A DNA stretch of 64,000 nt from an uncultured Methanosarcinales archaeon (GCA_964597775.1 CAZQZJ010000002.1:357-64356); one strand, 5' to 3'. Shown: positions 27,820-61,621, counted from the stretch's first letter. Numbers and translations are program-made. The notes: generated by a model not told the origin, from the letters alone.

Positions 27820-27874
27820 TATAATATTGTAAAATGTATGCCTTATTATAGGTTATGAAATGTGTGCAATATTT

Positions 27875-37079: not shown

Positions 37080-40067
37080 TTAAGCAATTTTAACATATTG
37101 TTTGTTTACAAAAGCTGTGTCACTTCCATATCGTATTTGATACCAATCTCCAGATTCACCTACAATAGAAACTTGTGTATCACGGTTCAATGCGCCAATT
37201 CTATTGTTCCCTATCTTAGCTGAACTTCTCACATTCAGTCTACCACCTTGTGTTGTAACTACACCTAAATAAGGTGTCAAAACTGGAAGATTAATATGCT
37301 CTGTTTGGGATTGTGATGCCAATTCTTCCTTTTCAGCTTGTTTTGTGTTTGGAAACCATCTTCGTATTTGATATTCACCATTCCTAATGCCTTGGTTTAG
37401 TTTTGCAGTGCTGATAAGGTTGGTATATCTTCTGGGTACAATGGCAGGATCTGAGCCTGCAAATCTATCAACAAATCTTTTTCCATTAATCTCAATGACT
37501 CCCAAAACACCTTCTGTATGGCCATATCCTTGTTTATTAGGCTTTTTTAGTATGACATCTCCAGATTGAATATCCTCTGCATTTTTGATAAGTGGAAGAT
37601 CTCGGGATGACATCTTCCACAGAGAGCCTGTTGCAAAAGACGCATAAGTTCCTCTTAAATATTCTGTGAAATCCTCTTCAGAGTTTGGTGTCCAGGTAGG
37701 TTTGTATCCTGGAAGTGCTATCTTATCTCTTCCTCCTTTTTTTATCTCTGATTTTTGGAACTCAGTATAACATCTTATCTGAACATCTGAACAGGTTTCA
37801 CTTCCTGAAATAATAGTATAGGCATTATTATCAAATCCTCCGATATTGTATTGTGTTCCCTCTCCAGGGTTGTAAAGTGGGATATCAAACCTTCTTCCGC
37901 TTACAGTGTTTGAGAGTTCAGATGAATGTATTTGTAATGCTGTTTCATATGGTTGCGTTTTGACTCCTGGAACCCTGTGAAGACCAAGGTTTTCTATATA
38001 ATTTGCAAAGGCATTTGTTCCCTGTGGTGTTGTTATTCTTTCTCCGAAATATCCTACTACGTTCTGGCCTGCATCTAACATAAGCAGCTCTCCAGCATTG
38101 TTTATTTCATTCTCAAGAATTTCTAATTCACTTCTCAATCGTACAGCTGGGTGTTGCTGTTTCAAATTCCCAATTTGATTTTCTGTTATTCTTATTTGTT
38201 GGTCTAAATCTTCAACTTTTTTTCGAAAAGTGGTTTCTCTTTGTTGAATTTGACGATTGTTTTCTGATGTTTGAGTCAAGACACTTCTTGCTCTCTCTAA
38301 TTCCTTTTCTGCTTTTTCTTTTGATTTTTTAAGATCCTTTAATATACTGAGTTGTTGTTCATAATTTGTTAGATAAGAGGATAATTGACGGTCAGTAGAA
38401 GTCATATGTGAAATCTGGGCTCTTTTTTGTTGTACAAGCTCTGTTTTCTGTGCTATTTGAGAACGTAGTTCTGAGATTTTCTCAGCAGGAATTCTAGAGT
38501 CATAGAATATATTTGTATTATATTCATATTTTCTGGTTTTTCCATCATCTGTTTTGTAGTCAAGCATCATGTCTGTGCCAGCGTATGTTGGAAGAGTTCC
38601 AAATATCTTAGAAAGCAAAGATGGGGTTTTGAAAGGAGTGAGCAGAATCTCTTTACCATTGGTCACAGTTTCCCAATTACCATTTTTTATCCTCAATCTA
38701 CCTTCTGCTGTAGCATGTATTGTTTGGGGTGTTCCTTCTTCTGACCCAGGTTCAAGTATGACTTTTCCTCCTTCAAGATTAATAGATAATCTTGTAGGAA
38801 TGTTTTCTTCAGGACGATCAGGTGATAATTGGTGCATATCTTTAAATCCAGAAAATACTAAATTTCTTTGTTTAAGTTCTGATGTAAAACCTGTTCCAGA
38901 GGCGATAACAATGTCAGAACCCTGCATGAAATAGTTTGCATGTACAGGTAGGTGTTGTTGTGAGATAAATGAGTGGTATATTTCATTCCTTTCTGATCTA
39001 TATCTTCTCTGAATTTCTGCAATCTTATCACGAAGGAAAAACTCATTATCCCTTAACCTTGAAGCTTTCTCCAACAAATCTCTCGCTTCTATTTTAAGAT
39101 CTGATTCCTTAGCTGGATTAAGCTCTCTTTCCATTTCCTGTTCTTTCTCTTTAGCTTGTGTTATCATTTGTGAAGCTTGTTCTCTATTTTTTTTTGCCTT
39201 TGTGTACTGGAGTAACAGCGGTTCTAATATTTCTTTTTCTCTTTGCACAGAAGCCATTATCTGATTATTAGAGATATATCTAATATAAAGTGGATTATCT
39301 GTTGTTGTGTGATGCCAATAACTTACCAATGCATCAGAGTATGGGTCAAGTAGTGTGGGAATTCCTTGTGTAAATCGAATTGATCCCTTGTTGAGGATAT
39401 CTCCTTTTGGAAGATTTATCCTCTCCCCTTTGATAGTGATATCTCTATCAATCTTTGAAATTGTTGTGTCGCTGACAAGTAAGACATTTTCTGTTCTATC
39501 ATAATGAGCTTCTGTTGGTTTATCAAAAGTCACTCCATTGATGGAAGTAAATATTCCATAGATTTTCCCATTCTCAAAAGATAATTCTGTTCCACGTATC
39601 AGAACTCCGTCAATTGATGTTTCTTTATTTTCATCTGCAAAAAGTTCAAATCCAGAACTAGTAGATATCAATTCTCCAGAAAACGAATGGGGATTGTTAT
39701 TATTATCTATAATGTGGAGGTGTCCTGATTCGTCTATTTTAAAAGAAAAGAGGTGTTTTGTATCATAGATGTTAATACGATATTTATCTGATGTGATCCA
39801 TCCCCGTGTATCGAATCTAAAGTCAAACTGTGCATTGCCTGATTGGGATATTTTGACACCTTCTTCGTTAAGCATCTTGATAAATATGTCATTATGTTCA
39901 TTCATATGTTGTGGGTCTTTTGCAAAGAATTTCTTTAAAGCTTCTCTATGATTTTCATTGGTATAATCAATTTCATTCAGATTAAGCTCGATAGATTCTT
40001 CTTGTGCCTGGACTATTCTAAGGAGGAGGATAATCACTAAAATTGTGACAAAGCTACCTTGTTTCAT
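37080..40067 (-). CDS. Large secreted protein: signal peptide, two coiled-coil regions, NlpC/P60-like papain-fold domain, C-terminal SH3b domain
   Basis: SH3b signature (RLNVRSSAKIGNNRIGALNRDTQVSIVGESGDWYQIRYGSDTAFV); Cys...GDVIL...GHTEGVLGV pattern. Confidence 0.6.
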   Translation of the reverse strand: MKQGSFVTILVIILLLRIVQAQEESIELNLNEIDYTNENHREALKKFFAKDPQHMNEHNDIFIKMLNEEGVKISQSGNAQFDFRFDTRGWITSDKYRINIYDTKHLFSFKIDESGHLHIIDNNNNPHSFSGELISTSSGFELFADENKETSIDGVLIRGTELSFENGKIYGIFTSINGVTFDKPTEAHYDRTENVLLVSDTTISKIDRDITIKGERINLPKGDILNKGSIRFTQGIPTLLDPYSDALVSYWHHTTTDNPLYIRYISNNQIMASVQREKEILEPLLLQYTKAKKNREQASQMITQAKEKEQEMERELNPAKESDLKIEARDLLEKASRLRDNEFFLRDKIAEIQRRYRSERNEIYHSFISQQHLPVHANYFMQGSDIVIASGTGFTSELKQRNLVFSGFKDMHQLSPDRPEENIPTRLSINLEGGKVILEPGSEEGTPQTIHATAEGRLRIKNGNWETVTNGKEILLTPFKTPSLLSKIFGTLPTYAGTDMMLDYKTDDGKTRKYEYNTNIFYDSRIPAEKISELRSQIAQKTELVQQKRAQISHMTSTDRQLSSYLTNYEQQLSILKDLKKSKEKAEKELERARSVLTQTSENNRQIQQRETTFRKKVEDLDQQIRITENQIGNLKQQHPAVRLRSELEILENEINNAGELLMLDAGQNVVGYFGERITTPQGTNAFANYIENLGLHRVPGVKTQPYETALQIHSSELSNTVSGRRFDIPLYNPGEGTQYNIGGFDNNAYTIISGSETCSDVQIRCYTEFQKSEIKKGGRDKIALPGYKPTWTPNSEEDFTEYLRGTYASFATGSLWKMSSRDLPLIKNAEDIQSGDVILKKPNKQGYGHTEGVLGVIEINGKRFVDRFAGSDPAIVPRRYTNLISTAKLNQGIRNGEYQIRRWFPNTKQAEKEELASQSQTEHINLPVLTPYLGVVTTQGGRLNVRSSAKIGNNRIGALNRDTQVSIVGESGDWYQIRYGSDTAFVNKQYVKIA

Positions 40068-40609
40068 ATATTGCCAACCTCTTCTGGTATTGCTATGGCA
40101 AATCTTAAGGAGTTATTGTATGTAGTACTGAGATCCTGGATTGAGATAAGGTAATAGTAACTTCCTTCGTCTGAGAGATAAGGTGTTGTGGTAATCCTGG
40201 TAAGATTGTCTGCAAGATCGTCAAGACAGCTTAGGCAGAGATAACCAGGCATTGTGTCATATTTGTCTACGATTTTTGATGCTATTGATAGGAACTTTTG
40301 TAAGTGAGATCTTATTCTAATGTCAAAAGACGAGATTCGCTCTTCTTTTCCTTGGCTCTTGATTGAGATGGGATATGAGAGCATAATAATGACATCAGGG
40401 TCTGTTATCATAACCTCTGCTGCAGGTTTGCCTACATTTGCAATAAGGTATTTATCTGGAAATGTCTCTTGTACAGCATCTACACATCGTGGAACTGTAT
40501 TAATAATACCACGTCGTATCTCATCTGCTATAAGGTCTATGCTTGGTAGAAATGCTCTATTTCTCCAATAAACAGGTAAGGTTAGGGTGGACAGTTCAAG
40601 GCCATCCAT
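40064..40609 (-). CDS. Hypothetical protein, co-operonic with large secreted protein (ATGA overlap)
   Basis: 181-aa ORF, no motif recognised. Confidence 0.35.
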   Translation of the reverse strand: MDGLELSTLTLPVYWRNRAFLPSIDLIADEIRRGIINTVPRCVDAVQETFPDKYLIANVGKPAAEVMITDPDVIIMLSYPISIKSQGKEERISSFDIRIRSHLQKFLSIASKIVDKYDTMPGYLCLSCLDDLADNLTRITTTPYLSDEGSYYYLISIQDLSTTYNNSLRFAIAIPEEVGNI

Positions 40610-40633
40610 AGGGATTCCATCATAAAATCCTCC

Positions 40634-40831
40634 TTACCATCCAACAAAAGCAATTGTTTCAGATGCTGCATATTCAAAGCATGTATCAAGGAATGTGTAA
40701 ACTTCAGTGGATGTGTCAGGATCTGTGTTCAGAATCTTTCTTGTTATAGGAGATTCTGTATAAAAAATAAGCATCAAAATAATGATAAAGCATGTTCCAA
40801 AGATAAGATAGATAGAAATCTGCCCTTTCAT
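40634..40831 (-). CDS. Small membrane protein, hypothetical
   Basis: 65 aa with N-terminal TM; first ORF of the minus-strand gene string. Confidence 0.3.
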   Translation of the reverse strand: MKGQISIYLIFGTCFIIILMLIFYTESPITRKILNTDPDTSTEVYTFLDTCFEYAASETIAFVGW

Positions 40832-40963
40832 ATTTAAAATTGTAGTTTCAGGAAGTTTTAAATGTTGTCAAAACAACACACACAACTTCTAACAATTAAA
40901 TATAACTACTATCAAGTTACAAAATAAGCAACATTTAAAAGGCAAGACATATTTGTATGATAA

Positions 40964-41803
40964 ATGTTTCCCAAAAAGTCACCTTGCTCAAAGATGTTGC
41001 AGTATTTATTGTTTGCTGTAGCATCACTTTCAGGTTGTTCACAAGGAAATGTTGGAGAGGTGTACAGGGTAAAGGAGTTCTATCATAATGATAGGCAGTA
41101 TGTGGTGCATATTCCTAATAAGGGGTTTGAAGAGAAAGATGTATTGATCTGGTCTCTTTTTGGAAGAGAGCGCATAACAACAAGCCAGCATGTGGATAAA
41201 AGAAAGACCACGTACACAGGAAGGCGTGATCCGTATAACACAGAAAGAGAGGAAAATGAAGATAGATACAATCTTCCGAATCCAGTTGTCCATATTGAAT
41301 TATTTGATGATAATCATAATCAAATTCCTGAAAAAATGATCTATAGAAACCCATACCCTTTTGTATTGAATTGGGGATCTGAGGATAATACAGTAGGTTA
41401 TGTATGCATCAAAGGAAGGGTTGTTGAGGGTAGTAACAATCATCAAGATATTGATCCAAGCAAGGCATTTGTTCTCAATCACAAAACAGATCAATCCTTT
41501 TCAGTTGTATGTAGTGATACTAGCGCATTTGGTTTGGCTCAAATCATGACGACATGTTATGGCTTTACAGGCACAAATCTTTTTCCTGGAATAAAGATAT
41601 CTACTCCAGAGGAAGGTTCAGACATTCCTAAATTTGAGGATGGGTCATCCTTGCGTGACAGGGCAAAGAGTGGCTTTGAAAGATCTTATCCTAATCAGGA
41701 AGCAAAAATGCGTGTTTTAGAGGATACTGTTAATTTGATGGCACGTCAGGGATGCAAGACCCTTAATTATATTGGTGGAGTAGAAACAGCAGTAAAAGAC
41801 TGA
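40964..41803 (+). CDS. Lipoprotein, hypothetical
   Basis: Signal peptide with SLSGC lipobox-like site. Confidence 0.45.
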   Translation: MFPKKSPCSKMLQYLLFAVASLSGCSQGNVGEVYRVKEFYHNDRQYVVHIPNKGFEEKDVLIWSLFGRERITTSQHVDKRKTTYTGRRDPYNTEREENEDRYNLPNPVVHIELFDDNHNQIPEKMIYRNPYPFVLNWGSEDNTVGYVCIKGRVVEGSNNHQDIDPSKAFVLNHKTDQSFSVVCSDTSAFGLAQIMTTCYGFTGTNLFPGIKISTPEEGSDIPKFEDGSSLRDRAKSGFERSYPNQEAKMRVLEDTVNLMARQGCKTLNYIGGVETAVKD

Positions 41804-41807
41804 TAAC

Positions 41808-43166
41808 ATGAAACAAATATTCTATGCATTGATTCTTGCTGTTGCAGGATGTGGTATTCAGGATAGATTGGTTGATAAGAAAGAGTATAGAAAACCTGTT
41901 ATTAAAGACAGTATAATATATTCCATTGATAAAAATAGTGATAGATCATTCACTCCTCTTGAAATCAGGATTATTGCAGCTAGCAAAAATAAAACAAAAT
42001 TGTTAAAACCCCCTATTCTTTCACAGATTACAGATCCTGTGACAATGTATGCTGTTCTCAGAGCAAGAACTGGTTCAGGGGAATTGATTATCGCTGATAA
42101 TGATATATTTTCTCTGATGGCACAGGAAGGTGGTGTCTCAGCTAATGATGAAAATCTTCCATGGGATTCAATGCTTGAAGAATGTCTTACATGGTACAAA
42201 GTAGAACCAAGATCATACAATTTTAGTAATACTGGTTCAAGTAGAGAATTCAAGGGTTTTGTGAACATGCCTTTTACAGAAACCATCTGTCGTTCAAGAG
42301 CATCTGAATACCAGGCAGATTCAAATCCTACAAACATCTATCTTTCTGTTATTCCCTCTCTTGTGCCAAGAGAGATCCAACAAGGATTTGGAACAATGAG
42401 GTATAAGGTAGAATTTAATGATGGGAGGAGATGTGTCAAGACAGCTGGTGCAGATGATATGCATCCAACAACGGGTTATGATAATGTTTTCAGAATATCA
42501 AGTGCAATAACAAATATGCATCCTTTGATAAACGCAGCAACATTATGGGGAAATGTGCCTTATTGTTACGGTTCTGCAAGTCCTGTTCATGATGTTAAAC
42601 ACGGAAAAGATGAAAAACTCTGTAAAGAATGTAGCAATCATCAGAGTGAGAATTTTTATTCTGCAGACTGTGCAGATATGGTTAGCGCTGCATTGCGAAA
42701 AAGAGGAATAAAAATTGGATATGATGGAACAGGGTTCTTTGATCCGGCAAGAGGCAACACCTTCCTTATTGCATCAATTCGTCAACAGAGGATAACAGGG
42801 GAGTATCTTGATGTAAACAACCGAATTATTAGATTTGGGCAGGAGGGGGTAAGAGAAGGTGATCTTGTGTTGTGGGATAAGCATATTGGTATCCTTGCAC
42901 TTGACAGCAGTCATATACAGGTTCTTCCTGAGAAAAATAATTTAGAGAGAGATGGTTTATACAACTTTTTTAGTCAATATATCTTAGATTATTTCCTATC
43001 AAGAAAGCAGAAGGTGGCTAAGATTAATAGGCCACTTCCAAATAATGTGCTTGATACGTCAGATATTGTTTATCATCATTTAGCAAAAAATCCATGTTTT
43101 GAATATCTAGGTTCTGCATTCTCTAATATATTTAGGGTTGTAAGAATAAAAGAAAGACGTATATGA
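41808..43166 (+). CDS. Lipoprotein with C-terminal NlpC/P60-like cysteine peptidase domain
   Basis: LAVAGC lipobox; SADCADMVSAAL (Cys nucleophile context) and GDLVLWDKHIGILALDSSHIQV (His motifs) in NlpC/P60 order. Confidence 0.5.
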   Translation: MKQIFYALILAVAGCGIQDRLVDKKEYRKPVIKDSIIYSIDKNSDRSFTPLEIRIIAASKNKTKLLKPPILSQITDPVTMYAVLRARTGSGELIIADNDIFSLMAQEGGVSANDENLPWDSMLEECLTWYKVEPRSYNFSNTGSSREFKGFVNMPFTETICRSRASEYQADSNPTNIYLSVIPSLVPREIQQGFGTMRYKVEFNDGRRCVKTAGADDMHPTTGYDNVFRISSAITNMHPLINAATLWGNVPYCYGSASPVHDVKHGKDEKLCKECSNHQSENFYSADCADMVSAALRKRGIKIGYDGTGFFDPARGNTFLIASIRQQRITGEYLDVNNRIIRFGQEGVREGDLVLWDKHIGILALDSSHIQVLPEKNNLERDGLYNFFSQYILDYFLSRKQKVAKINRPLPNNVLDTSDIVYHHLAKNPCFEYLGSAFSNIFRVVRIKERRI

Positions 43167-43430
43167 TCTTTGAATCAACGATAAGTATGTGATAAATATG
43201 TGGTCCTAATATAGTTTAATATTTCAATTACCTTTCCAGGATTTCCTCTTCCAACAGGGAAATAACAAGGAATTACAAGGTATTCCATCCCAAAAATAGG
43301 TTTGCGTTAAAAATATCTTCCAAATCTCTTTTGTTCCAACAAATGGGAATCTTACTCAGTTATATTCTAGAGATGAGGTGGTTAAATCACTCATTAAACC
43401 CTCTAAGTGTAACTTATTCAATAGGTTTAG

Positions 43431-43514
43431 TGCAAGGAGCAGGATTCGAACCTGCGAACGCACTAAGCGAACAGCTCTTGAGGCTGCCCCGTTTGACCAC
43501 TCCGGAATCCTTGC
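43431..43514 (-). tRNA. tRNA-Leu (anticodon CAA), class II with long variable arm
   Basis: Hand-folded: acceptor GCAAGGA/UCCUUGC, anticodon loop CUCAAGA, 15-nt variable arm, T-arm GCAGGUUCGAAUCCUGC; CCA not encoded. Confidence 0.85.
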
Positions 43515-43520
43515 ATGGTT

Positions 43521-43621
43521 TCTCAAATGGGTTCATACCCCATATGCTCTGCATAGGATATATTTACCCATTTGAGATTAAAAAATACCCCTGGGCTCTG
43601 CCCAGGTTGGGATTTTTTATT
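43521..43621. repeat. Intergenic module X, copy 2, immediately upstream of tRNA-Leu; contains the probable tRNA promoter TATA
   Basis: ~90% identity to 26282-26380 including the A6-hairpin-T6 structure. Confidence 0.6.
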
Positions 43622-43732
43622 TCTGGTGTTGAAGTATGGATATGGATTTATAAAACTAGAGATTGTGTGTGTAAAAATACACTCATAAAAAACAGCATCG
43701 TTACAGTTAGAATAGTGCTATTTAAATAATGT

Positions 43733-44101
43733 TTACTCTAATCCTTTGAGTTCAGCCTCAATCTTTGCAAGTTCTGTTTCAAGCACTGTGACTTTATCAG
43801 GTTCTGTTTTTTGTTGTGCAGTTGCTCTTCGATCTTCAATGATTTTTTTTACCTGTGTTGCAGGAGCTGCTTTAAGTGGGGCTTTTGGCATAGCATTTTT
43901 AAGGCGTTTGTTAAGAACAATGATCTCTTCTGCTATGCGTTTGTATTCATTAGTAAGTTCATGTTTTTCTTGGCGTAGTAATCCAATCTGGTCATATGAT
44001 TTAAGTGATCCAATAATCTCTTTGATTGAGAGAAGAATTTCTCTTCTAATAAGTGATGGATTAGGTACACCTACATAGAGTGGGTTTTGTTCCTGTGCCA
44101 T
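43733..44101 (-). CDS. Small coiled-coil protein, member of a tandem paralog trio
   Basis: N-terminal LYVGVPNPSLIRREILLSIKEI block similar to the N-terminal/C-terminal blocks of the next two genes. Confidence 0.35.
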   Translation of the reverse strand: MAQEQNPLYVGVPNPSLIRREILLSIKEIIGSLKSYDQIGLLRQEKHELTNEYKRIAEEIIVLNKRLKNAMPKAPLKAAPATQVKKIIEDRRATAQQKTEPDKVTVLETELAKIEAELKGLE

Positions 44102-44322
44102 TATTCTTCAAAGAGTTTTTTGTCAATAAGTTTGATTCTCTCTTCTACAGCTTCAAGATCTCTTTTCCATGATGCAACAGCAGCATCTTCCTGGTTTTTG
44201 AGGTCGTTGATACGTTCTAAAATCTGGTGTGCTCGTTTAATTTTGTCTTTGGTAAGATTAAGGATGTCAACAATATCTGTGCAATCCTCAATTTTCACAA
44301 AAACAGGCATTGCTTTATCCAT
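44101..44322 (-). CDS. Small coiled-coil protein, paralog (start at MDKAMPVFVKIED)
   Basis: VFVKIEDCTDIVDILNLTKDKIKR block; the longer ORF overlaps the upstream gene. Confidence 0.35.
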   Translation of the reverse strand: MDKAMPVFVKIEDCTDIVDILNLTKDKIKRAHQILERINDLKNQEDAAVASWKRDLEAVEERIKLIDKKLFEE

Positions 44323-44326
44323 AGAT

Positions 44327-44851
44327 TCACTCTCCGCTAAATATAACTGTGTCGATGTAATTGAGTTTTTTTTCCATGTCTGATAATTGGATTTTCCAAT
44401 CTGAAAAAATACGATCTTGTGCTGTTTTAATTTCTCCAAGTCTGATAATGGTGTTTTCGCTATCAGCTAGTGTAGTGCGCATAGCTTGAATACTGCTAAG
44501 AATAAGGTTATAGTCATGAGCACTGACAAAGACAGGTGTTGTGACTGGTGGGCGTGGTACAAGTTCTTCTTGAACCTGGATTGTTCTATCAGCCACATGT
44601 TTAGATGTTTCAATTGGTTGTTCTCGGAGTGTTGGCGTGCTTGGTGATGGTGTTTGAAGATCTGCAGCAGTGATTGTTGGGATTTCTGGTTGTTGTTCTA
44701 AAGATGCTGGTATCTTGAGTTCAGAAGAGATCTCCTCAAACCTAAGTGGTGGTGGAGGAGGTGGTAGTTCTGATGCAGACTTTTCCTTCTTGAATAAGTT
44801 TAATATTCCCACAACATCACCCCAAATGTAGTATATCTTCAGCAAGAACAC
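44327..44851 (-). CDS. Pro-rich linker protein with C-terminal paralog domain (start uncertain)
   Basis: PPPPPP linker, then VFVSAHDYNLILSSIQAMR block homologous to neighbours. Confidence 0.35.
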   Translation of the reverse strand: MFLLKIYYIWGDVVGILNLFKKEKSASELPPPPPPLRFEEISSELKIPASLEQQPEIPTITAADLQTPSPSTPTLREQPIETSKHVADRTIQVQEELVPRPPVTTPVFVSAHDYNLILSSIQAMRTTLADSENTIIRLGEIKTAQDRIFSDWKIQLSDMEKKLNYIDTVIFSGE

Positions 44852-44939
44852 CTTTTAAATCTTATTTACCACTAAAAAAGGGTCACAAAAGATCATAAGA
44901 TTCAGATACCTTTAAAATAAGCTACCACCAATCAATGTT

Positions 44940-45494
44940 ATGGCTCTGATAACACGTTCTATTATTGAGATGCTAGGAAAACCTAAAGAGCATATAGAAG
45001 AGACACTGCACAATTATGTAAATAAGCTCAAGCAAGAAAAGCTCAAGATCTTGCATGAGGAATATGCTGATGCAAAAGAACAAGGTCTTTTTTTCTCTGT
45101 TTTTGTAGAACTAGAAATCGAATTTGATTCGATAACTGACTTAATCAATTTTTGTATAGACTCATTGCCCTCATCTGTTGAAATAATCGAACCAGAGTCA
45201 GTTACTATTGAAGCTGCAAATCTCACAGCTGCACTTACAGATTTACAAGGGCATTTGCATGAACTTGATATGGTTATCAAGGAATTGCATGCAAAGACAG
45301 ATTTAATTGATAGAAATGCAGTGGCTTTGTTCCGTAATATCATTGTACATCTTCTGCACCAAAAACCTTATTCAAAAGAAGAGCTTTCAGCGATCTTAGG
45401 CATTAAAGCAAACGAATTGGAGCCATTTCTTGATAGAATGGTTGAAATGAATCTTATTATCCCTAAAGATAATCTTTATACATCTGTTAGTTAA
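44940..45494 (+). CDS. Hypothetical protein with C-terminal winged-helix-like region (possible kleisin/ScpA-like partner; speculative)
   Basis: Immediately upstream of scpB; TATA CCTTTAAAATA ~25 nt upstream. Confidence 0.35.
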   Translation: MALITRSIIEMLGKPKEHIEETLHNYVNKLKQEKLKILHEEYADAKEQGLFFSVFVELEIEFDSITDLINFCIDSLPSSVEIIEPESVTIEAANLTAALTDLQGHLHELDMVIKELHAKTDLIDRNAVALFRNIIVHLLHQKPYSKEELSAILGIKANELEPFLDRMVEMNLIIPKDNLYTSVS

Positions 45495-46773: not shown

Positions 46774-49239
46774 ATGGCACAAACACAGTCAGAAAACAGG
46801 GTTGTTGCACGTCTTATTGAAGAGGAGATGCAGGTCTCTTATCTCAATTATTCAATGAGTGTGATTGTAGGTAGAGCTCTGCCTGATGTGCGTGACGGTC
46901 TCAAGCCTGTTCATCGTCGGGTCTTGTATACTATGTTTGAAACAGGCTTGTTGCATAATAAACAAACTAAGAAATCAGCCAATGTTGTAGGTAATTGTAT
47001 GGCAAGGTATCATCCGCATGGTGATACTGCGATTTATGATACCTTAGTTCGTCTTGCTCAAGACTTTTCAATGAGATATCCACTTATTATTGGTCAAGGA
47101 AACTTTGGTTCAATTGATGGCGACGCAGCTGCTGCCATGAGATATACTGAAGCAAAATTACATGCTCTTGCTGAAGAACTTATTGAAGATATTGATAAAG
47201 AAACAGTTTTGTTTACACCTAATTTTGATGGGTCAGCAAAGGAACCAACAGTGTTTCCTTCAAAGGTTCCTAATCTTCTTGTTAATGGTTCATCAGGTAT
47301 TGCTGTAGGTATGGCTACAAATATGCCGCCGCATAATCTCAAAGAGGTTTGTGCAGCTATCATAAAGCGAATTGAGAATCCGAATAACACGATACAGGAG
47401 TTGATGGATATCATTATTGCACCAGATTTTCCTACTGGTGGAATTATCTGTAGCAGAGCAGGAATTATAGAAGCATACAATACTGGTAAAGGTAAATTAT
47501 TATTACGAGCAAAAACACATGCTGAAGAAGTTAAAAATAATCGTCAGGATCTGATTGTTGATGAAATACCCTATCAAGTAAACAAGACGCAGCTTATTGA
47601 AGATATCGCTGTACTGGTTCGGGATAAGGTAGTGCAAGGTATTACTGACATACGTGATGAATCAGATCGTGATGGAATGCGTATTGTTTTCGAATTAAAA
47701 AATGGTGCTAATCCTGACGTTGTGCTCAACCAGCTATTTAAGCATTCGCGGTTGCAAACAACCTTTGGTATTATCAATTTGGCTTTGGTTGATAATCAGC
47801 CAAAAATACTGAGCCTACCCCAATTATTAGATTATCATATTGAGCATCGTGTGGCAATCGTCAGAAAACGTTCTGAATTTGGTCTTGTAAAAGCAAAGGA
47901 ACGTCTCCACATCCTTAACGGTTTTATTGTGGCATTAGATGATATCGACAGCGTGGTAAAAATAATTAAGGCAGCAAAGAGTCCGCAACAAGCTGCTCAG
48001 TATCTTATGGAACAATTTAGGTTAAGTGAGATCCAAGCCCAATCCATTCTTGATATGAAATTGCAGCGTATTACAAGTTTAGAACAAGATAAGATTCGTG
48101 AGGAGCAAAAAAATGTTACTATAAGAATCAGCGAGTTAGAGATTCTGCTTTCTTCTCGCAAGAATATTCTTGATGTTATCTGTATTGAGGTTGTGGATTT
48201 GGCACAGCGATTTGGTGATGCTAGAAAAACTCAGGTAATTGAGAGCGAAGGCGATCTTGAGGTTGAAGATCTTATAAAACCTGAGGATGTTGTTGTTACA
48301 TTTACTCATTCAGGATATGTTAAGCGCTTGCCTATTGATACGTATAAACAGCAGCGTCGTGGTGGGAGAGGGGTCATTGCTGCTGAAGCAACAGAAGAGG
48401 ACTTCTTAGATCATCTTTTTGTAGCAAATACGCATTCCTGGTTGCTTGTCTTTACTGATACAGGTAAAGTTCATTGGTTAAAGGTGTATCAGATTCCAGC
48501 TGCATCCAGAACAGCGCGGGGTACATCAATTGTAAACCTGGTTGAAATGCAATCTGCTGAAAAGGTAACTGCAGTGCTTCCAGTCAAAACATTTAGTGAT
48601 GAGCAGCTTGTCTTTTTAGGAACACAGGATGGAACAGTCAAGAAATTATCGCTTAGCCATTTTTCAAATCCTCGTCGTGGTGGTATTGTTGCAATGAAAC
48701 TCGAGGATGGTGATCGTTTAGTTAATGCCCTAATTACCAATGGAGATAAGGATATTATTGTTGGTACAAAAAAAGGTCTTGCGATCAGGTTCCACGAATC
48801 TAATGTTCGAGAGATGGGAAGAACTGCAATTGGTGTAAGGGGTGTTAAACTAAGGCAAACTGATGCAGTTATTGGGGTAGAAATTGCAGATAATGCAAAA
48901 TATCTTCTTACTATTTCAAGAAATGGAATTGGGAAGAAAACACAGATGGGAGAGTATAATCGCACTAATAGGGGTGGCATTGGTGTAATTAATATGAAAG
49001 TCACTGATAAGTCAGGTGAAGTTGTAGCTGTTCTGTCTGTGGATGATGAGGATGAAATCATGTTTATCTCAAAGATGGGGATTGCTATTAGGATTCCAGT
49101 TTCTGGAGTATCAAGTATTGGCAGAAACACCCAAGGTGTAAGAGTGATGAAGCTTGAAAATAATGATGAGGTTGTTGCTGCTGCAAAGATTGCAAAGAGC
49201 AAGGCTAATGGTTCTGATGAAAGCAATAGCAGTCTGTAA
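46774..49239 (+). CDS. gyrA: DNA gyrase subunit A
   Basis: HPHGD, active-site AAMRYTEAKL, GyrA-box-like region and C-terminal beta-pinwheel repeats; 821 aa. Confidence 0.9.
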   Translation: MAQTQSENRVVARLIEEEMQVSYLNYSMSVIVGRALPDVRDGLKPVHRRVLYTMFETGLLHNKQTKKSANVVGNCMARYHPHGDTAIYDTLVRLAQDFSMRYPLIIGQGNFGSIDGDAAAAMRYTEAKLHALAEELIEDIDKETVLFTPNFDGSAKEPTVFPSKVPNLLVNGSSGIAVGMATNMPPHNLKEVCAAIIKRIENPNNTIQELMDIIIAPDFPTGGIICSRAGIIEAYNTGKGKLLLRAKTHAEEVKNNRQDLIVDEIPYQVNKTQLIEDIAVLVRDKVVQGITDIRDESDRDGMRIVFELKNGANPDVVLNQLFKHSRLQTTFGIINLALVDNQPKILSLPQLLDYHIEHRVAIVRKRSEFGLVKAKERLHILNGFIVALDDIDSVVKIIKAAKSPQQAAQYLMEQFRLSEIQAQSILDMKLQRITSLEQDKIREEQKNVTIRISELEILLSSRKNILDVICIEVVDLAQRFGDARKTQVIESEGDLEVEDLIKPEDVVVTFTHSGYVKRLPIDTYKQQRRGGRGVIAAEATEEDFLDHLFVANTHSWLLVFTDTGKVHWLKVYQIPAASRTARGTSIVNLVEMQSAEKVTAVLPVKTFSDEQLVFLGTQDGTVKKLSLSHFSNPRRGGIVAMKLEDGDRLVNALITNGDKDIIVGTKKGLAIRFHESNVREMGRTAIGVRGVKLRQTDAVIGVEIADNAKYLLTISRNGIGKKTQMGEYNRTNRGGIGVINMKVTDKSGEVVAVLSVDDEDEIMFISKMGIAIRIPVSGVSSIGRNTQGVRVMKLENNDEVVAAAKIAKSKANGSDESNSSL

Positions 49240-50362
49240 TAAAGGTCTTGAGGCATATTGTGCTCAAGAATTAAAAGCGATTCTTCATACAAAACTAAGT
49301 ATGTTGGATCGAATTATTCTTTTTGAATCTGATCTTGTATCAATTGCATTGTATGCGTATCGATCTCAGGTTGCTAAAAGAGTACTTCTACTTTTAGGTC
49401 ATATAGGGCATCACGGTAATCTTGAAGAGGCTCTTGAAAATCTTATTAAGAATATAGATTTCTCGCCTTATTTTATAAATGGAGTAACCTTTTGTGTTCG
49501 CACTGACAAGCTTGATTATAAAATATATCCAAGTCAAGAAATAGAGCAGCTTGCAGGTGAATTAATTTTTACTAAAACACAGGCAACAGTTTCGCTTAAG
49601 GATCCAGGTCTTCTTATACGAATTATTGTTACACCAGGCGATATTTTTATCACTCTTGACACTGCAAAAGAAGAGCTTACTAAAAGAGATTACAAGATAT
49701 TTGCAGGATCAGATCCATTCAATGCTTCCACCTCTGCAGCCTTTGCCTTATTTTCAGGATTTAATGCAAAGAAATCATGTCTTGATATTTCATGTGGTGC
49801 TGGTCTGCTTGTTATAGAGTCTGCTCTTATAGCAACAAATCGTTCACCGCATTATTTTCGCAAGGAGAAGTTTCTCTTTCCGCAATGGACCTGGTCAGGT
49901 GTTGATTGGAATAAAAAGTTTGAGCTGTGGGATAAAAAGATTAATAGTGCCAAGCCTAAATTGCAGGCAATTGATACTCAGAATGTTCATGTTGAGGCAA
50001 CTAAGAAAAATGCAAAAATTGCTGGGGTAATCAAATCACTAATTATTGCCAGAATCGATATAGAATGGCTTGATACTAAATTCAACAAATCAAGTATTGA
50101 TCTTGTTATGTCAATGCTCCACTTTCCTGCTACTTCGCTAAATAAGATTGAAGCATGGATTTCTAAGTCTTCTCATCAAGCTGCATATATTCTTAAGCCA
50201 GGGGGAATAATAACTCTTCTTACAAAATATCCATCCCAAGCTAAATTACTTGTTTCAAAACAAGGGTTTAAGCTTTGTAATGAAGTCCAATTCTTTCAAG
50301 GCGATGATTGTTGGACTGCGCTTGCATGGGAAAACACAAAAAGTGATTATAAAAACGCTTAA
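49217..50362 (+). CDS. THUMP-domain SAM-dependent RNA methyltransferase (Trm14/RlmL/COG0116-like), motif IV degenerate
   Basis: N-terminal ferredoxin-like+THUMP architecture, motif I DISCGAGLLVIESAL; HFPA in place of DPPY. Confidence 0.55.
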   Translation: MKAIAVCNKGLEAYCAQELKAILHTKLSMLDRIILFESDLVSIALYAYRSQVAKRVLLLLGHIGHHGNLEEALENLIKNIDFSPYFINGVTFCVRTDKLDYKIYPSQEIEQLAGELIFTKTQATVSLKDPGLLIRIIVTPGDIFITLDTAKEELTKRDYKIFAGSDPFNASTSAAFALFSGFNAKKSCLDISCGAGLLVIESALIATNRSPHYFRKEKFLFPQWTWSGVDWNKKFELWDKKINSAKPKLQAIDTQNVHVEATKKNAKIAGVIKSLIIARIDIEWLDTKFNKSSIDLVMSMLHFPATSLNKIEAWISKSSHQAAYILKPGGIITLLTKYPSQAKLLVSKQGFKLCNEVQFFQGDDCWTALAWENTKSDYKNA

Positions 50363-50402
50363 AATGGGGTTTAAAAGGGGCAACCACTTTTCTCATGCCA
50401 AA

Positions 50403-50412
50403 CCTTTAAATA
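50403..50412 (+). promoter_or_regulatory. TATA box CCTTTAAATA (with CCAAA BRE-like) upstream of candidate RNase P RNA
   Basis: Same 15-mer as the ATPase promoter. Confidence 0.4.
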
Positions 50413-50439
50413 TGATCTAACTCTTACTGTCTTATCCAG

Positions 50440-50800
50440 GGTGCAGACGAAGCCAACGGTAACATCATATTGTTTGGTGTCTCTGAGGAAAGTCTGCCCA
50501 CATCCAGGATCTTTAGTTCAAATCTAAAGATTCTGCAGACAAGCGGTACCTATCCAAACAATAGGATCCAGTAATGGATGGCAACATCACCGAAACGACA
50601 CGGCCATATGCAGATGAGAATGACGCAGTGAAGTCCTTGGTAACAGGGATGAGTTAACCTGTAGAATGATGCATAATGGATGCGATGAAACGGATAGCCC
50701 TATCGTGTGCAAGGCAAACAAGATGCAAGTAGTTCATAAAAACATGTCTGCGTGCTCTTCACATGCCGCTTAGTTGAATGCTTCGGCAGATCATCGGAAG
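50440..50800 (+). ncRNA. rnpB: Candidate RNase P RNA
   Basis: Non-coding 480-bp gap with TATA; CR-I-like GAGGAAAGUCUGCCC at 50485-50499; distal GGCAGAU (50785-50791) can pair with GUCUGCC to form a P4-like helix. Confidence 0.35.
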
Positions 50801-50877
50801 GATGTTATAATCTTTCTTTGGGTCTGACAAAAGGCAGCTTATATGCGCCCTGGATCTTTTTTAAGGTGAGGAAGAGT

Positions 50878-51051
50878 ATGGCACAAGATAGGATCACACT
50901 ACCATCAAGTACAGCTGGTTTGACAAGATTTAATGAGGCATCTCTATCCAAAATAGAGTTTTCACCAGGTGGTGTGATTGTCTTAACACTGATCATTGTT
51001 CTTATTATTGTGATACTGCACTCTTTTGGCAATGCGTGGTTTGGATTATGA
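50878..51051 (+). CDS. Sec61-beta/SecG-like translocon subunit (57 aa)
   Basis: SSTAGLTRFNEAS...single C-terminal TM; characteristic GL.RF motif. Confidence 0.7.
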   Translation: MAQDRITLPSSTAGLTRFNEASLSKIEFSPGGVIVLTLIIVLIIVILHSFGNAWFGL

Positions 51052-53193: not shown

Positions 53194-53265
53194 GGCGGCT
53201 GTAGTATAATGGTAGTATTCGGGACTGTGGATCCCGAGAACCGGGTTCGATCCCCGGCAGTCGCC
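53194..53265 (+). tRNA. tRNA-His (anticodon GUG) with genome-encoded G-1 pairing C73
   Basis: Hand-folded: G-1 + GCGGCUG/CAGUCGC acceptor, anticodon loop CUGUGGA, T-arm CCGGGUUCGAUCCCCGG, followed by T7. Confidence 0.85.
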
Positions 53266-53276
53266 TTTTTTTAGGG

Positions 53277-54596
53277 CTAAAGTTTTTGAAAATATGCTTG
53301 AAGTTCTTCTTGTTGTGGGGAATCGTACAAAAGTGCTTCTGCAATAATCTCTCGTGCACGATCATTCTTGCCTTGTTTTTCAAAAACAACTGCCAAATTT
53401 GAAAGCGCCCAAATATCATCTGATTTTTTGTAAATCATATCTTGGAGATATAGTTCTGCTGCTCCATATTTGTGGTCTGCAATAAGTTCTGCAAGATGTA
53501 TTTGTGCAGGGTATCTTTTGTGAAGTGAAGCAAGTACTGCCTTAAAATTAGCAAGTTCTGTGCTTCGGTATGCACGACGAGCAGCAAAGAAAAGTCTTTG
53601 GATGTTTTTGGTTCTAGTAAGGGATGCAACGATGTTGGTATGAGCTGCAGCATTATGTGGGTTGATGCGCAGTGCTGCTTCAAAACATTCAATTGCTGTT
53701 GCATAATCTTGACGTTTGATAAAGATAAGCCCTTTGTTAATAAATGCATTTTCATTGTATGGTTTGAGTTGTATTGCGCGGTCATATGCTTTTATTGCAT
53801 CAGCATCTTGTCCTAACTTTACTAAAACATCTCCAAGATTTGTATAAACAAGTTTATAAAAAGGGTCTAGGCTTGCTGCGTGCGTGAGCATCTGAAGTGC
53901 TTGAGGAAATCGTCCTAATGTTTTGTAAATTTTTCCAACTTCATAGTATCCTTTTGGATTATTAGGTCTTTCTTGCATATCCTTGATTCCAAGTTCAAGA
54001 TAAAGATCACGTTTTTTGCTAAGAATATCCTCTCCTTTAAGATAGCCATAGTGGTGAATAGGGATATGTCCTAATCCAATGCTTCCTCCAATAGATGTGA
54101 TTGCAGTATCAATCTCTTCATGAACTTTGTTAATAAATCTGATTCTTTTGTCATTGCGAAAAAGTCTGGTAATTGGAGAAATAAAGAACCCTTTTGCTCG
54201 GCATTCAGGATATGTATCGCATGGTTGCCAGCTGTAATAGGTTGTGTTATCAGTATAATTGCGTTGGTCAAGAATCCAGCCCATCATTGTTTGGTGGTTT
54301 GTGAGTTGTTTAATTTTCTCAAAATCTTGTGGTGAAATTACTTCATCTGCATCAATATAAAGAATCCAATCTCCTGTTGCATGTTTGATTGCTTCGTTCC
54401 TTGCTGATGAAAAGTCATTTGTCCAAGGAATCTGGAATATTTGTGCTCCTTTTTTTGCTGCAAGATTCATGGTGTTATCAGTACTTCCTGTATCAACAAG
54501 AATGATCTCAGAAACAAGGGATTTTACAGAGTCTATGGCAGTTTCAATTCTATCTGCCTCATTCTTTGCAATCATACATAATGAGATTGTTGTCAT
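53277..54596 (-). CDS. Family-2 glycosyltransferase with C-terminal TPR repeats
   Basis: N-terminal GT-A fold motifs (SLCMIAKNEADRI..., DAD), then multiple 34-aa TPR-like repeats. Confidence 0.7.
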   Translation of the reverse strand: MTTISLCMIAKNEADRIETAIDSVKSLVSEIILVDTGSTDNTMNLAAKKGAQIFQIPWTNDFSSARNEAIKHATGDWILYIDADEVISPQDFEKIKQLTNHQTMMGWILDQRNYTDNTTYYSWQPCDTYPECRAKGFFISPITRLFRNDKRIRFINKVHEEIDTAITSIGGSIGLGHIPIHHYGYLKGEDILSKKRDLYLELGIKDMQERPNNPKGYYEVGKIYKTLGRFPQALQMLTHAASLDPFYKLVYTNLGDVLVKLGQDADAIKAYDRAIQLKPYNENAFINKGLIFIKRQDYATAIECFEAALRINPHNAAAHTNIVASLTRTKNIQRLFFAARRAYRSTELANFKAVLASLHKRYPAQIHLAELIADHKYGAAELYLQDMIYKKSDDIWALSNLAVVFEKQGKNDRAREIIAEALLYDSPQQEELQAYFQKL

Positions 54597-58803: not shown

Positions 58804-59604
58804 TTAATTTGTAAGATTTGTTGGCTCGTTAAAGCTTACAACATCTCTTTTATTACAATCTCCTCCTGTTTCTTTAATAGGGCTTAAAATCATTCCTATT
58901 TCTTTATCAACTTCCTTTTTATTGCCAGGAGTGATGGAATAAATGTTATTTCCTACTGCTACTTGTGCATTTGTTGTGTAATTATATTTCATGACCAGAA
59001 CATCATAAATCTTGTTATCTGTCTCAACAGTTTTGCTTCGTCCTTCATCATAGTATTTACAAGATTTTTTGTTTGAACTAAAAAGACATATTTCTGATGA
59101 TGTTACAGTGGCGCTGCAGCGATTTTCAGAGCCCCTGCCGCAATCAAATGCTGTGCAACAGTGATCATTAGGGATACATTTATTTTGTAGATTGCAGAAT
59201 CGATACTTTGATGGGCATGTGCATCCTTTGAAATCTTCTTCACATACCTTATTTGATGGGCAAATAACACTTTTGCAGCTAAAGACACAAGTTCCGCTTA
59301 TACAATTTTCATTCTGGTTACAATCTAAGTTTGTGCAACAATCTTTTTTATTAATACATAAATTATTACAATTCTTTTTGTTAGGTTCACAACTACATAC
59401 TCCATTTACACAAATCTTATCTGATTCGCATACAACACCTGTACATGGATTAGAGAGGTTTTGGGAGTTAGATAGGTTTGATCTATTCTGGGTATGGTTT
59501 GGTAAAGGAGGTTCTTCAATTGGTTCAGAGAGACTGACTCGCTGTGTACAGGCAGTAAGAAGAATAGTAACAAAGAGTAGTATACTTAGGGTAATCTTGT
59601 TCAT
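58804..59604 (-). CDS. Cys-rich lipoprotein with tandem EGF-like/Cys-knot-like repeats
   Basis: LLTAC lipobox; repeated C..x..C.NG.C.C patterns. Confidence 0.4.
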   Translation of the reverse strand: MNKITLSILLFVTILLTACTQRVSLSEPIEEPPLPNHTQNRSNLSNSQNLSNPCTGVVCESDKICVNGVCSCEPNKKNCNNLCINKKDCCTNLDCNQNENCISGTCVFSCKSVICPSNKVCEEDFKGCTCPSKYRFCNLQNKCIPNDHCCTAFDCGRGSENRCSATVTSSEICLFSSNKKSCKYYDEGRSKTVETDNKIYDVLVMKYNYTTNAQVAVGNNIYSITPGNKKEVDKEIGMILSPIKETGGDCNKRDVVSFNEPTNLTN

Positions 59605-59640
59605 GTGGTAATCACGTAGCTACTAGCTAGGGGTTAGTCC

Positions 59641-60243
59641 TTATAAATTTGAGCCTTGGATAGCGCAATAAACAGCATATCCATCTTTTCTCCCTACAAC
59701 ACAAACAGATCCAATTCGCTCTTCCATACGCTTGCACAGGGTTTTGCCACCCTTAGATGGTCGTGCAACTACATAAAAACATCCTCCACTATAAAGGTGT
59801 GATGATGCTTGATCAATCATAGCAAAGCAGATGGTTTTTCCTGCTGTCTGTGGTGGGTTAAGTAAGATTACATCAAATCTTTCTGGTGTTGTATCATACA
59901 GGTTTCCCTGGCGTACATCAATTTCAACACAATTAACCTCAGCGTTTTTCTTTGTGAGTTCTACAGCACGTTCATTAATATCTACTGCAACAATGTTGCA
60001 TTTTAGAAATGCTTTTTTAACTGCAATTCCAACAATGCCGTATCCGCATCCAAGGTCAAGAATATGCATTCCATCCCTAATGCTGCATCTTTGTGCAAGG
60101 AGTCTGCTGCCTTGATCAATATGTTGTTTGGAAAAAATACTAGAACTGGTGTAGAATATCAGTTTGTTTCCACGAACTGTATCTTTAATAAGATAATCCT
60201 TCTTTTTTGAGATAGGATGTTGGGTAAAATAGTGTTCTATCAT
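59641..60243 (-). CDS. Class I SAM-dependent methyltransferase (RsmC/METTL5-like, NPPQ motif)
   Basis: Motif I ILDLGCGYGIVG and motif IV LLNPPQTAG. Confidence 0.7.
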   Translation of the reverse strand: MIEHYFTQHPISKKKDYLIKDTVRGNKLIFYTSSSIFSKQHIDQGSRLLAQRCSIRDGMHILDLGCGYGIVGIAVKKAFLKCNIVAVDINERAVELTKKNAEVNCVEIDVRQGNLYDTTPERFDVILLNPPQTAGKTICFAMIDQASSHLYSGGCFYVVARPSKGGKTLCKRMEERIGSVCVVGRKDGYAVYCAIQGSNL

Positions 60244-60246
60244 ATA

Positions 60247-60855
60247 TCATCTTACTGATGTTACTGGCATTATATTGTACCATGCATATAAGAGTCGATC
60301 TACTGATTTGAGTAACTCCAGTCCTTCGCCAAGCAGGATAATACACGTTCCTCTTGCTGCAATGCCGCTTTCTCCTTGTCCTAGAAGATAGATAACTGAT
60401 TTGTTTGTATCTCCACATTTAATAATTGGTCGTTCTGTGCAGATATCTGTTATATTGGTTGCGCATGCAGCAATAGGTGTTATGCCAATAGCCTGAACCA
60501 TATTGATAGAGAGTTCAGCTGCAGCAAGGCTCATTGTTGTAAAATTACCAGCTTCTGGATCAAAGGTGATATAAATAGTTGGTTTGTTAAAACCTGGATC
60601 AAAGATACCACTTACACTTACATTTTTAACATCATATGGGTTAAAGCGAAGTCTAATATTAAAAATAGTATTGCCTTTTTGCCATTCTGTGTTCCACAAT
60701 CCTCCAGCTTTAATAAAATCAAAGTGGTTATAGCTTACTGTCTGATATCTATTTGGTTTGTAGGTTTGGAAAAGGGTGTAGAATCCAAGAATAATAAGGA
60801 TGATAAGAATTCCTGACCATATCAATGCATTGTGGTACCAGCATTTTTCATTCAT
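60247..60855 (-). CDS. Membrane-anchored extracytoplasmic protein, paralog A
   Basis: N-terminal TM; shares ITFDP / C.N.T...I.C / LxYAWYNI blocks with the next gene. Confidence 0.4.
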   Translation of the reverse strand: MNEKCWYHNALIWSGILIILIILGFYTLFQTYKPNRYQTVSYNHFDFIKAGGLWNTEWQKGNTIFNIRLRFNPYDVKNVSVSGIFDPGFNKPTIYITFDPEAGNFTTMSLAAAELSINMVQAIGITPIAACATNITDICTERPIIKCGDTNKSVIYLLGQGESGIAARGTCIILLGEGLELLKSVDRLLYAWYNIMPVTSVR

Positions 60856-61484
60856 TGCATAACTCCTAATATAGAGTACATGAGTCTTTCATTAAGCTTA
60901 AGAAAATCTTCATCATTAGCTGCGCTGATGATGATACAACTTTTATCAATATTTAAATTAGTTTCATTTGCTTGCATAAACATCAGTACAGGTTCTGTTA
61001 CTGTTGCATTTCCACAATTGATCTGTGGTAGATCAGGATACTCGCTATTATTAAGAAGTGCACGTTGCACATACATCTGTTTGCCAAGTTTTAAGAGGTC
61101 ATCATTGGTATATTGTATTCCTCCAAGAAGATCACTAAATTCTGAATAAGGGTCATAGGTAATCCAGAACACACGTGTACTTTGCAGGATTTGTATAGCA
61201 TCTAAGCTTATATTGGTATGTTCAAGCTGTTCTGGTAAGTATGTAAATGTAAGGTCATTTCCATTAATCTCTGTTTTCCACTTGTTCTGAGCTGGAGTAA
61301 ATGTATAATTTCCATAGGTTGATGTGGCAACATTTTGTGTTGATTTATAATCAAGAACAAAGGCAAAACTAGATAACAGCATAAGTCCAATCATGAATAA
61401 TCCAAACCAAACAGCAAGTTTAATTCTTGGTTTAGGGTGATTTCTTGGTAATATATGGCCTATACTGCTCATTGACAGGTTCAA
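60852..61484 (-). CDS. Membrane-anchored extracytoplasmic protein, paralog B
   Basis: ATGA overlap with paralog A; conserved blocks as above. Confidence 0.4.
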   Translation of the reverse strand: MNLSMSSIGHILPRNHPKPRIKLAVWFGLFMIGLMLLSSFAFVLDYKSTQNVATSTYGNYTFTPAQNKWKTEINGNDLTFTYLPEQLEHTNISLDAIQILQSTRVFWITYDPYSEFSDLLGGIQYTNDDLLKLGKQMYVQRALLNNSEYPDLPQINCGNATVTEPVLMFMQANETNLNIDKSCIIISAANDEDFLKLNERLMYSILGVMQ

Positions 61485-61621
61485 AATTAACTGAATTTAA
61501 AAGTCTTCTGTATTAATAGGTTGCATCCAAATAATGGGTCGCCAGCAGCCTCAGGTCGAGCGTTGTGATGAATCTATCAAAAGCGACAAGTGGGTTCAAA
61601 ATGGGTGCTCCCCTTTTTTCA

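Follow-up and report, generated by a model that had tools for sequence, protein, structure and literature searches.

What is encoded in the 515-bp gap that separates a THUMP/RlmL-type methyltransferase gene (positions 49208-50362 [+], stop at 50362) from the Sec61beta gene (50878-51051 [+], ATG at 50878) in a 64-kb stretch of DNA, hereafter called the window, of an uncultured archaeon? A preliminary description had found no credible open reading frame (ORF) there and had proposed either an RNase P RNA of reduced, atypical form or, as a fallback, an unknown noncoding RNA (ncRNA) of about 350 nt. RNase P is the ribozyme that trims the 5' ends of tRNAs, and its RNA is required in every archaeon using the ribonucleoprotein form of the enzyme. 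The gap was indeed devoid of credible reading frames, all its ORFs being of 44 amino acids or fewer, bar one GTG-started extension of the Sec61beta frame. This 99-amino-acid ORF (50752-51051 [+]), which overlaps the 3' part of the RNA described below, was rejected as an artefact; Sec61beta really starts with the ATG at 50878, in agreement with the annotation of MAG GCA_038044785.1 at NCBI, which carries an identical protein.

An Rfam scan of the whole window returned a match to the archaeal RNase P RNA family RF00373 (RNaseP_arch) at 50439-50850 (+; 412 nt), with a score of 96.7 bits against a gathering threshold of 84 and an E value of 1e-25. The match covered model positions 1 to 288 of 288 and was the sole RNase P match in the 64 kb; RF00373 was also the best-scoring family of its clan, bacterial models scoring lower. 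The curated threshold was thus exceeded across the full model in the very check that had been called for, a cmsearch with RF00373, and the proposal of an RNase P RNA was borne out. In the Rfam alignment, conserved regions CR-I to CR-V were all present and in canonical order, and the GC content of the gene was 45%, versus 37.5% for the whole window. Overall, the segment 50434-50855 (+) almost certainly encodes, as a single-copy gene, the catalytic RNA of RNase P; the host is an uncultured archaeon of the Woesearchaeota (DPANN), and the ends of the RNA, the use of its promoter and its catalytic activity are predicted from the sequence. The RNA belongs to a known family, is recognised by standard tools, is larger than usual, and is mostly ordinary.

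The limits of the gene were refined by comparison with two relatives, a Candidatus Woesearchaeota archaeon (GCA_016211165.1; L010) and a Logan assembly (L011), each encoding a THUMP protein 47% identical to that of the window. Both keep the order GyrA-THUMP-[RNA]-Sec61beta-NAC, and the corresponding gaps contained RF00373 matches of 89.9 bits (L010, 443 nt) and 102.2 bits (L011, 405 nt). The preliminary description had let the RNA end at 50800, which is too early, as the 3' limit of the Rfam match lies at 50850. In addition, P1 could be lengthened by 3 to 5 bp past the limits of the Rfam match in each of the three RNAs, and the added pairs covary (window, ATCCA.../...TGGAT); the RNA therefore extends from P1 to P1 over 422 nt, from 50434 to 50855.

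Upstream of the gene lies an archaeal promoter (50398-50412 [+]) consisting of a BRE-like CCAAACC followed by a TATA box; its sequence, CCAAACCTTTAAATA, is present as had been claimed and is identical in L011. The TATA box itself, TTTAAATA (50405-50412 [+]), is centred about 26 to 28 nt before the first nucleotides of P1, and the same TTTAAATA precedes the GGG of P1 by 26 to 28 nt in the window, L010 and L011. We infer that this promoter is used; a gene for the TATA-binding protein (TBP) is found at 2042-2626 (-). Directly after P1, a run of six T residues (50857-50862 [+]) is likely to act as the transcription terminator, since oligo-T is a known termination signal for archaeal RNA polymerase.

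THUMP homologs carry the label Candidatus Woesearchaeota. A search of the genome collection with this gene gave eight Woesearchaeota loci at 25 to 32% identity, and in the seven that were scanned (L002 to L008), no RNase P RNA lay within 4 kb of the THUMP homolog, so the linkage between the two genes is not universal. A THUMP methyltransferase gene nevertheless also stands upstream of the RNA gene, on the same strand, in three distant Woesearchaeota lineages (29 to 32% identity; L026:5661-6794 [-], L015:3205-4347 [-], and L016:3307-4377 [-]). The protein is a probable tRNA or rRNA m2G methyltransferase, and the arrangement represents a patchy linkage of two RNA-maturation genes. A 19-mer identical in the three homologs, GAGGAAAGTCTGCCCACAT, had no match in the JGI metagenome contigs, and the immediate clade is therefore absent from these contigs.

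For the secondary structure, helices were defined on the window RNA and projected onto an alignment of three sequences (window, L010, and L011). Over 100 pairs in the three homologs, 98.0% of the 299 cells were standard pairs, versus 29 to 42% when the partners were slid by 1 to 3 columns. Compensation, with both sides changed, was observed at 27 of the 100 pairs, and none of 500 shuffles matched any of the observed measures. Single-sequence minimum-free-energy folding recovered P1, the J5/7 hairpin, P8, P9, and P19 and was left out for the core; the pairing that it proposed between GUCUGC of CR-I and GCAGAC of J5/7 was not adopted, this kind of folding being unable to show pseudoknots. The window RNA contains P1 to P5, P7 to P12, P15 and P16, a weak P17, a tentative P6, and two extra helices. 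Relative to the Rfam consensus, four expansions were counted, namely, lengthened forms of P3 and P12 and the two whole helices.

The catalytic core is conventional. CR-I (GAGGAAAGUCUGCCC; DNA, GAGGAAAGTCTGCCC) was placed at 50485-50499 (+) by the Rfam alignment and by the covariation of P4, and CR-V (ACAAAAGGCAGCUUA) lies at 50827-50841 (+). The 5' strand of P4 is made of AAG (50490-92 [+]) and CUGCC (50494-98 [+]), with U50493 bulged between them, and its 3' strand is GGCAGCUU (GGCAG-CUU; 50833-50840 [+]), inside CR-V. All eight pairs of AAG-U-CUGCC/GGCAG-CUU are formed in all three homologs. Among 20 parsable related RNAs, CR-I and CR-V paired at five of five positions in every one, through six sequence combinations (CUGCC/GGCAG, CCGCC/GGCGG, CUGCC/GGCGG, CCACC/GGUGG, CCGUC/GACGG, and CUCCC/GGGAG). 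P2 (CGAAGC, 50448-53, with GCUUCG, 50780-85 [+]) has 6 bp, 100% paired with two compensated pairs; its 3' strand follows CR-IV, GCUUAGUUGAAU, which starts at 50768, the two together spanning 50768-50785 (+).

The Rfam alignment and the three-homolog structure delimit a complete specificity domain at 50544-50705 (+). P7 (50544-48/50701-05 [+]) encloses P8 (50549-53/50561-65 [+]), which is 100% paired with four of five pairs compensated, as well as P9 with a GUAA loop (50566-79 [+]), P10 (50580-88/50693-99 [+]), P11 (50601-11/50671-84 [+]), and P12, again with a GUAA tip (50625-62 [+]; three of six tip pairs compensated). P9 to P12 were all supported in the three-homolog comparison, and the T-loop motifs of both CR-II (ACCGAAACGACACG, 50589-50602 [+]) and CR-III (GAUGAAACGG, 50685-50694 [+]) are present. 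P12 carries an internal loop (50629-50658), conserved in the three homologs, in which GUGAAG/GCGAAG/GUGACG faces UGAGUUAAC/UGAGGUAAC/UAAGAUAAC and the flanking stems covary. The loop may be a protein-binding motif. A by-eye attempt to read it (GUGAAG / UGAGUUAAC) as a K-turn, the site of L7Ae, gave no fit to the consensus.

The P15-P16-(P17) module occupies 55 nt (50713-50767 [+]), a size that is nearly constant in the three homologs (54 to 55 nt). In P15 (GGCA/UGCC, 50713-16/50764-67 [+]) and P16 (AAGA/UCUU, 50720-23/50756-59 [+]), pairing is 100% and one pair per helix is compensated; P15 is joined to P5 by a CAA linker carrying the "A anchor" (50710-12 [+]). In folds and alignment read by eye, P17 was clear in L010 (GCGCG/CGCGC) and L011 (GGCAU/AUGCC) and weak in the window. 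A candidate P6 pseudoknot would pair GCAGAC (50535-50540 [+]) with GUCUGC (50746-50751 [+]), a perfect 6-bp complement in the window; across the three homologs, 82% of the cells were paired, with two compensated pairs and three mismatched cells, and the assignment of P6 is tentative. The 3' side of L15 lacks GGU.

The first of the two extra helices fills the junction between P5 and P7. This J5/7 hairpin (50507-50533 [+]) stands at the position of the bacterial P5.1 and has a 10-bp stem, GGAUCUUUAG/CUAAAGAUUC, closed by the loop UUCAAAU. All 10 pairs are formed in all three homologs, two of them having changed on both sides and three on one side, as illustrated by the covariants UUUAG/CUAAA, UCCAG/CUGGA, and UUCAG/CUGAA. 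L3 and L17 were inspected visually, and neither offered a convincing complement with which the loop sequence UUCAAAU/UUAAACU could form a loop-loop contact. P5.1 has been treated as specific to bacterial type B (PMC5066622, PMC7191817, PMC12974513), and the searched literature, a search outside which lay the genome-wise P5.1 tables of PMC12974513, held no description of a P5.1-like archaeal helix or of a DPANN RNase P RNA structure.

The second extra helix, P19, is a 40-nt hairpin (50787-50826 [+]) between the 3' strand of P2 and the 3' strand of P4, the location by which P19 is defined (PMC6565675, PMC12974513). It is composed of a base, CAGAUC/GGUCUG, 100% paired in the three homologs, a conserved internal loop, AUC/UUG, and an apical stem, GGAAGGAU/AUCUUUCU, that has another length and sequence in the relatives (GGCG/CGUC) with pairing kept. 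P19 is a known optional element of archaeal RNase P RNAs: a 2026 survey of 298 of them reported it in various archaeal clades and plotted its length on the archaeal tree (PMC12974513). It is known to stack on P2/P3, and in Methanocaldococcus jannaschii an engineered P19 turns the dimeric holoenzyme monomeric (PMC6565675). Because of this experiment, P19 likely keeps the holoenzyme of the window monomeric as well, by analogy; should the M. jannaschii result hold here, the holoenzyme would be a monomer of the kind seen in eukaryotes.

These features bear directly on other possible accounts of the locus. In the preliminary description, the RNase P RNA was taken to be reduced and atypical and to stop near 50800; its CR-I was called divergent, and GUCUGCC was paired with GGCAGAU to give P4. 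The motifs on which this was built do exist, GAGGAAAGTCTGCCC at 50485-50499 and GGCAGAT at 50785-50791, and GUCUGCC is complementary to GGCAGAU in the window sequence. However, GGCAGAU lies at the junction of the P2 3' strand with P19, straddling the 5' foot of the latter, and is missing from both homologs, L010 and L011, which read AUCGGAU there, whereas GGCAGCUU of CR-V is invariant. Since GGCAG of CR-V compensates CUGCC and GGCAGAU is missing in the relatives, CR-I is ordinary and the P4 proposed earlier is wrong: the invariant decamer GAGGAAAGUC is intact (from 50485), and CUGCC is the variable inner portion of the 5' strand of P4, matched exactly by CR-V. The perfect covariation of CR-I with CR-V in 20 of 20 RNAs argues in the same direction. 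Nor is the RNA reduced, as the Rfam model aligned full-length out to 50850 and the 412 to 422 nt of the RNA, two extra helices included, exceed the 288 positions of the model by 124 to 134 nt. We give the reduced form next to no credence.

It is just as hard to sustain that the gap encodes an unrelated, promoter-driven ncRNA that merely contains a CR-I-like decamer. The five conserved regions in correct order and the covariance-model E value of 1e-25 exclude the fallback of an unknown 350-nt ncRNA; moreover, compensatory changes were seen for every RNase P helix, and the genes of two protein subunits of the enzyme, Rpp29 and Rpp21, lie in the same window, leaving this account exceedingly improbable. 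One could also imagine a decaying or nonfunctional extra copy, the working gene lying beyond the window, given that 64 kb of the genome is visible, that the Rfam score is just about 13 bits over the threshold, and that P17 is weak. The modest score, however, is due to insertions and not to damage of the core, all conserved regions being intact; even in genomes that share just 47% identity in the neighbouring THUMP protein, these insertions have been kept with compensatory changes, and the promoter is conserved there too. A decaying copy is thus very improbable.

We then asked how widespread the J5/7 hairpin is. In the Rfam consensus, CR-I and CR-II are about 58 nt apart, versus 94 nt in the window, and metagenomes were scanned for loci with universal CR-I and CR-II sequences at a distance of 80 to 110 nt. 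This yielded 23 loci, comprising 19 archaeal RNAs above the gathering threshold, 2 below it (L018 and the incomplete L029), 1 bacterial type A RNA, and 1 locus without a match. Every distinct archaeal RNA of the scan had a hairpin of 25 to 40 nt directly after P5 and before P7/P8/P9, of a sequence unrelated between metagenomic groups; the sample is biased towards long CR-I to CR-II spacing. P19, for which the search did not select, was found in all RNAs complete at that end, as 29 to 60 nt between CR-IV and CR-V. Most of the metagenomic RNAs with a J5/7 hairpin had a P15 stub of 9 to 13 nt without P16, P17, or P6 (for example, L025:315-661, L015:1554-1934, and L036:4579-4941). Exact-sequence matches assigned L030 and L016 to MAGs named Candidatus Woesearchaeota archaeon, and L019 to a Candidatus Nanoarchaeia archaeon. 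On account of these placements, we regard the combination of J5/7 hairpin and P19, seen in the sequences of about 20 metagenomic RNAs, several of them so placed, as a recurrent feature of Woesearchaeota/Nanoarchaeia. The clade of the window is the version that retains the P15-P17 module alongside the hairpin and P19.

A bolder reading, which we consider possible but rather doubtful, is that the Woesearchaeota/Nanoarchaeia RNAs form a distinct, undescribed subtype marked by P19 and by the J5/7 helix as an archaeal counterpart of bacterial P5.1, in which gain of the hairpin with loss of P16, P17, and P6, seen in most of the lineages, is a convergent replay of the bacterial transition from type A to type B, the clade of the window being an intermediate. 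The archaeal losses of P6, P16, and P17 have been stated not to be accompanied by RNA expansions (PMC12974513), a generalisation that a true subtype of this kind would contradict. The J5/7 hairpin is by itself mildly novel, and its association with the loss of P16, P17, and P6, in a biased sample, parallels bacterial type B.

Two of the scanned loci had unusual surroundings. In L018 (GenBank WGS LKMJ01000512.1), the RNase P RNA (4222-4618 [+], 397 nt) is located inside an array (3862-8296) of at least 18 tRNA genes on the same strand, a ribozyme gene embedded among the genes of its own substrates. It scored 61.8 bits, under the gathering threshold of 84, yet with an E value of 1.6e-15, and threshold-based annotation would miss it. 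L029, a contig from Hainich groundwater, carries the 3' end of an archaeal 23S rRNA gene (1-114), followed on the same strand, after about 680 nt, by the gene for the RNase P RNA (795-1051). Lineage-specific insertions bring Woesearchaeota RNAs near or below the Rfam threshold (96.7, 89.9, and, for L018, 61.8 bits versus 84). Annotation pipelines that filter at this threshold will therefore overlook some DPANN rnpB genes, whose apparent absence may be misread as a loss of RNase P.

The presence of two protein subunits in the window, which the preliminary description had pointed out, was confirmed. Rpp29 (11655-11891 [-]; PF01868, 50.7 bits, E = 1.7e-13) is unusually short, with 78 amino acids, and sits in a ribosomal-protein operon, L29 - SUI1 - Rpp29 - S17, with 4-nt gene overlaps (11655-12387 [-]). 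Rpp21 (31888-32187 [-]; PF04032, 57.4 bits, E = 1.9e-15) has 99 amino acids. Pop5, Rpp30, and L7Ae were not found among those ORFs of the 64-kb window that were scanned against Pfam. As for potential substrates, the genes of tRNA-His (53194-53278 [+], with a run of seven T residues directly after it) and tRNA-Leu (43430-43514 [-]) have no encoded CCA. Because CCA is absent from these genes and GGU from L15, the enzyme probably does not use pairing with the 3'-CCA of the tRNA.

Other parts of the window were also inspected. At 17222-18643 (-), one ORF of 473 amino acids appears to encode a fused PriS-PriL primase, with matches to the small-subunit (PF01896) and large-subunit (PF04104) families of the archaeo-eukaryotic enzyme. 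A 995-amino-acid protein (37080-40067) has a C-terminal SH3_3 domain as its sole Pfam match. Most ORFs tested in three regions, 25066-28917 (-), 40064-45494 (both strands), and 58804-61860 (-), gave no Pfam match at E values of 0.001 or less; they include 25066-25386, 25383-25778, 25775-26446, 26385-26957, 27875-28282, and 28180-28917 in the first region and 40064-40609, 40964-41803, 41808-43166, and 44327-45494 in the second.

A course of events can be proposed for the RNA. Transcription would start at the TBP-type TATA promoter and stop at the T run. As comparison with the family shows, the RNA folds into the archaeal type A architecture, in which CR-I and CR-V form the P4 pseudoknot, whose bulged U helps to build the metal-binding active site; P4 with this U, together with CR-I, CR-IV, and CR-V, makes up the catalytic core. 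The RNA would assemble with Rpp29 and Rpp21; further partners, presumably Pop5, Rpp30, and L7Ae, would be encoded outside the window. In the M. jannaschii structure, Rpp29-Rpp21 (and L7Ae) are located at the S-domain and Pop5-Rpp30 at CR-IV and P2/P3 (PMC6565675), and the same distribution would be expected here. The T-loops of CR-II and CR-III in the S-domain, again by comparison, bind the elbow of the tRNA, and the A anchor of the CAA linker between P5 and P15 stacks on the first tRNA base pair; the complex would cleave the 5' leaders off pre-tRNAs. By analogy, P19 may stack on P2/P3 and block dimerisation, and the J5/7 hairpin may serve as a structural brace or a protein platform at the hinge of the C and S domains. 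Where P6 is absent, the hairpin might take over the bridging role of that helix, as P5.1 does in Bacilli (PMC12974513).

How, then, does the RNA relate to known architectures? It is not of type T/P (RF02357), in which the S-domain is almost wholly missing, since CR-II, CR-III, and P10 to P12 are all present. With archaeal type M (M. jannaschii; cryo-EM structures 6K0A/6K0B), it shares the catalytic core and the set of protein partners, and the short P15 stub of type M, without P16, P17, and P6, is found in other Woesearchaeota RNAs that were retrieved. Type M, however, has no P8, its P5-P7 junction is empty, the C domain being made up of P1 to P5 and P15 only, and it lacks P19 and dimerises (PMC6565675), whereas the window RNA has a supported P8, a supported P16 with a weak P17, P19, and the J5/7 hairpin.

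The resemblance to bacterial type B (Bacillus, RF00011) lies in the hairpin at the P5-P7 junction, the position of P5.1, and in P19 between P2 and P4. In Bacilli, the gain of P5.1 was accompanied by the loss of P6 (PMC12974513). In contrast to type B, which is without P6, P16, and P17, the window RNA keeps P15 and P16, a weak P17, and possibly P6, has no P10.1 and no P15.1 that could provide the L5.1-L15.1 contact, and is archaeal in its core sequence, its best-scoring model, and its protein subunits. The likeness to type B is positional, arose most likely by convergence, and does not reflect membership.

The closest counterpart is archaeal type A (RF00373; Methanothermobacter, Pyrococcus horikoshii), which is defined by a P15-P16-P17 module with a P6 pseudoknot (PMC7191817, PMC5066622) and separated from type B by the absence of P5.1 (PMC7191817). 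The window RNA shares with it CR-I to CR-V, P4 with its bulged U, P1 to P3, P5, the P7-P10 cruciform including P8, P11/P12 with the T-loop motifs, P15-P16, the 3-nt linker between P5 and P15, and the protein partners Rpp29 and Rpp21. It differs in exceeding the model consensus by about 130 nt, in having a 40-nt P19, in the absence of GGU from the 3' side of L15, in its weak P17 and uncertain P6, and in its 10-bp J5/7 hairpin, where the RF00373 model has 8 unpaired positions. P8 and the complete S-domain (P7 to P12) are those of type A, whereas the J5/7 hairpin stands where type A is without a P5.1. Because a covariation-supported hairpin fills its P5-P7 junction, we classify the RNA, on its predicted structure, not as a textbook type A but as a type A with an added element.
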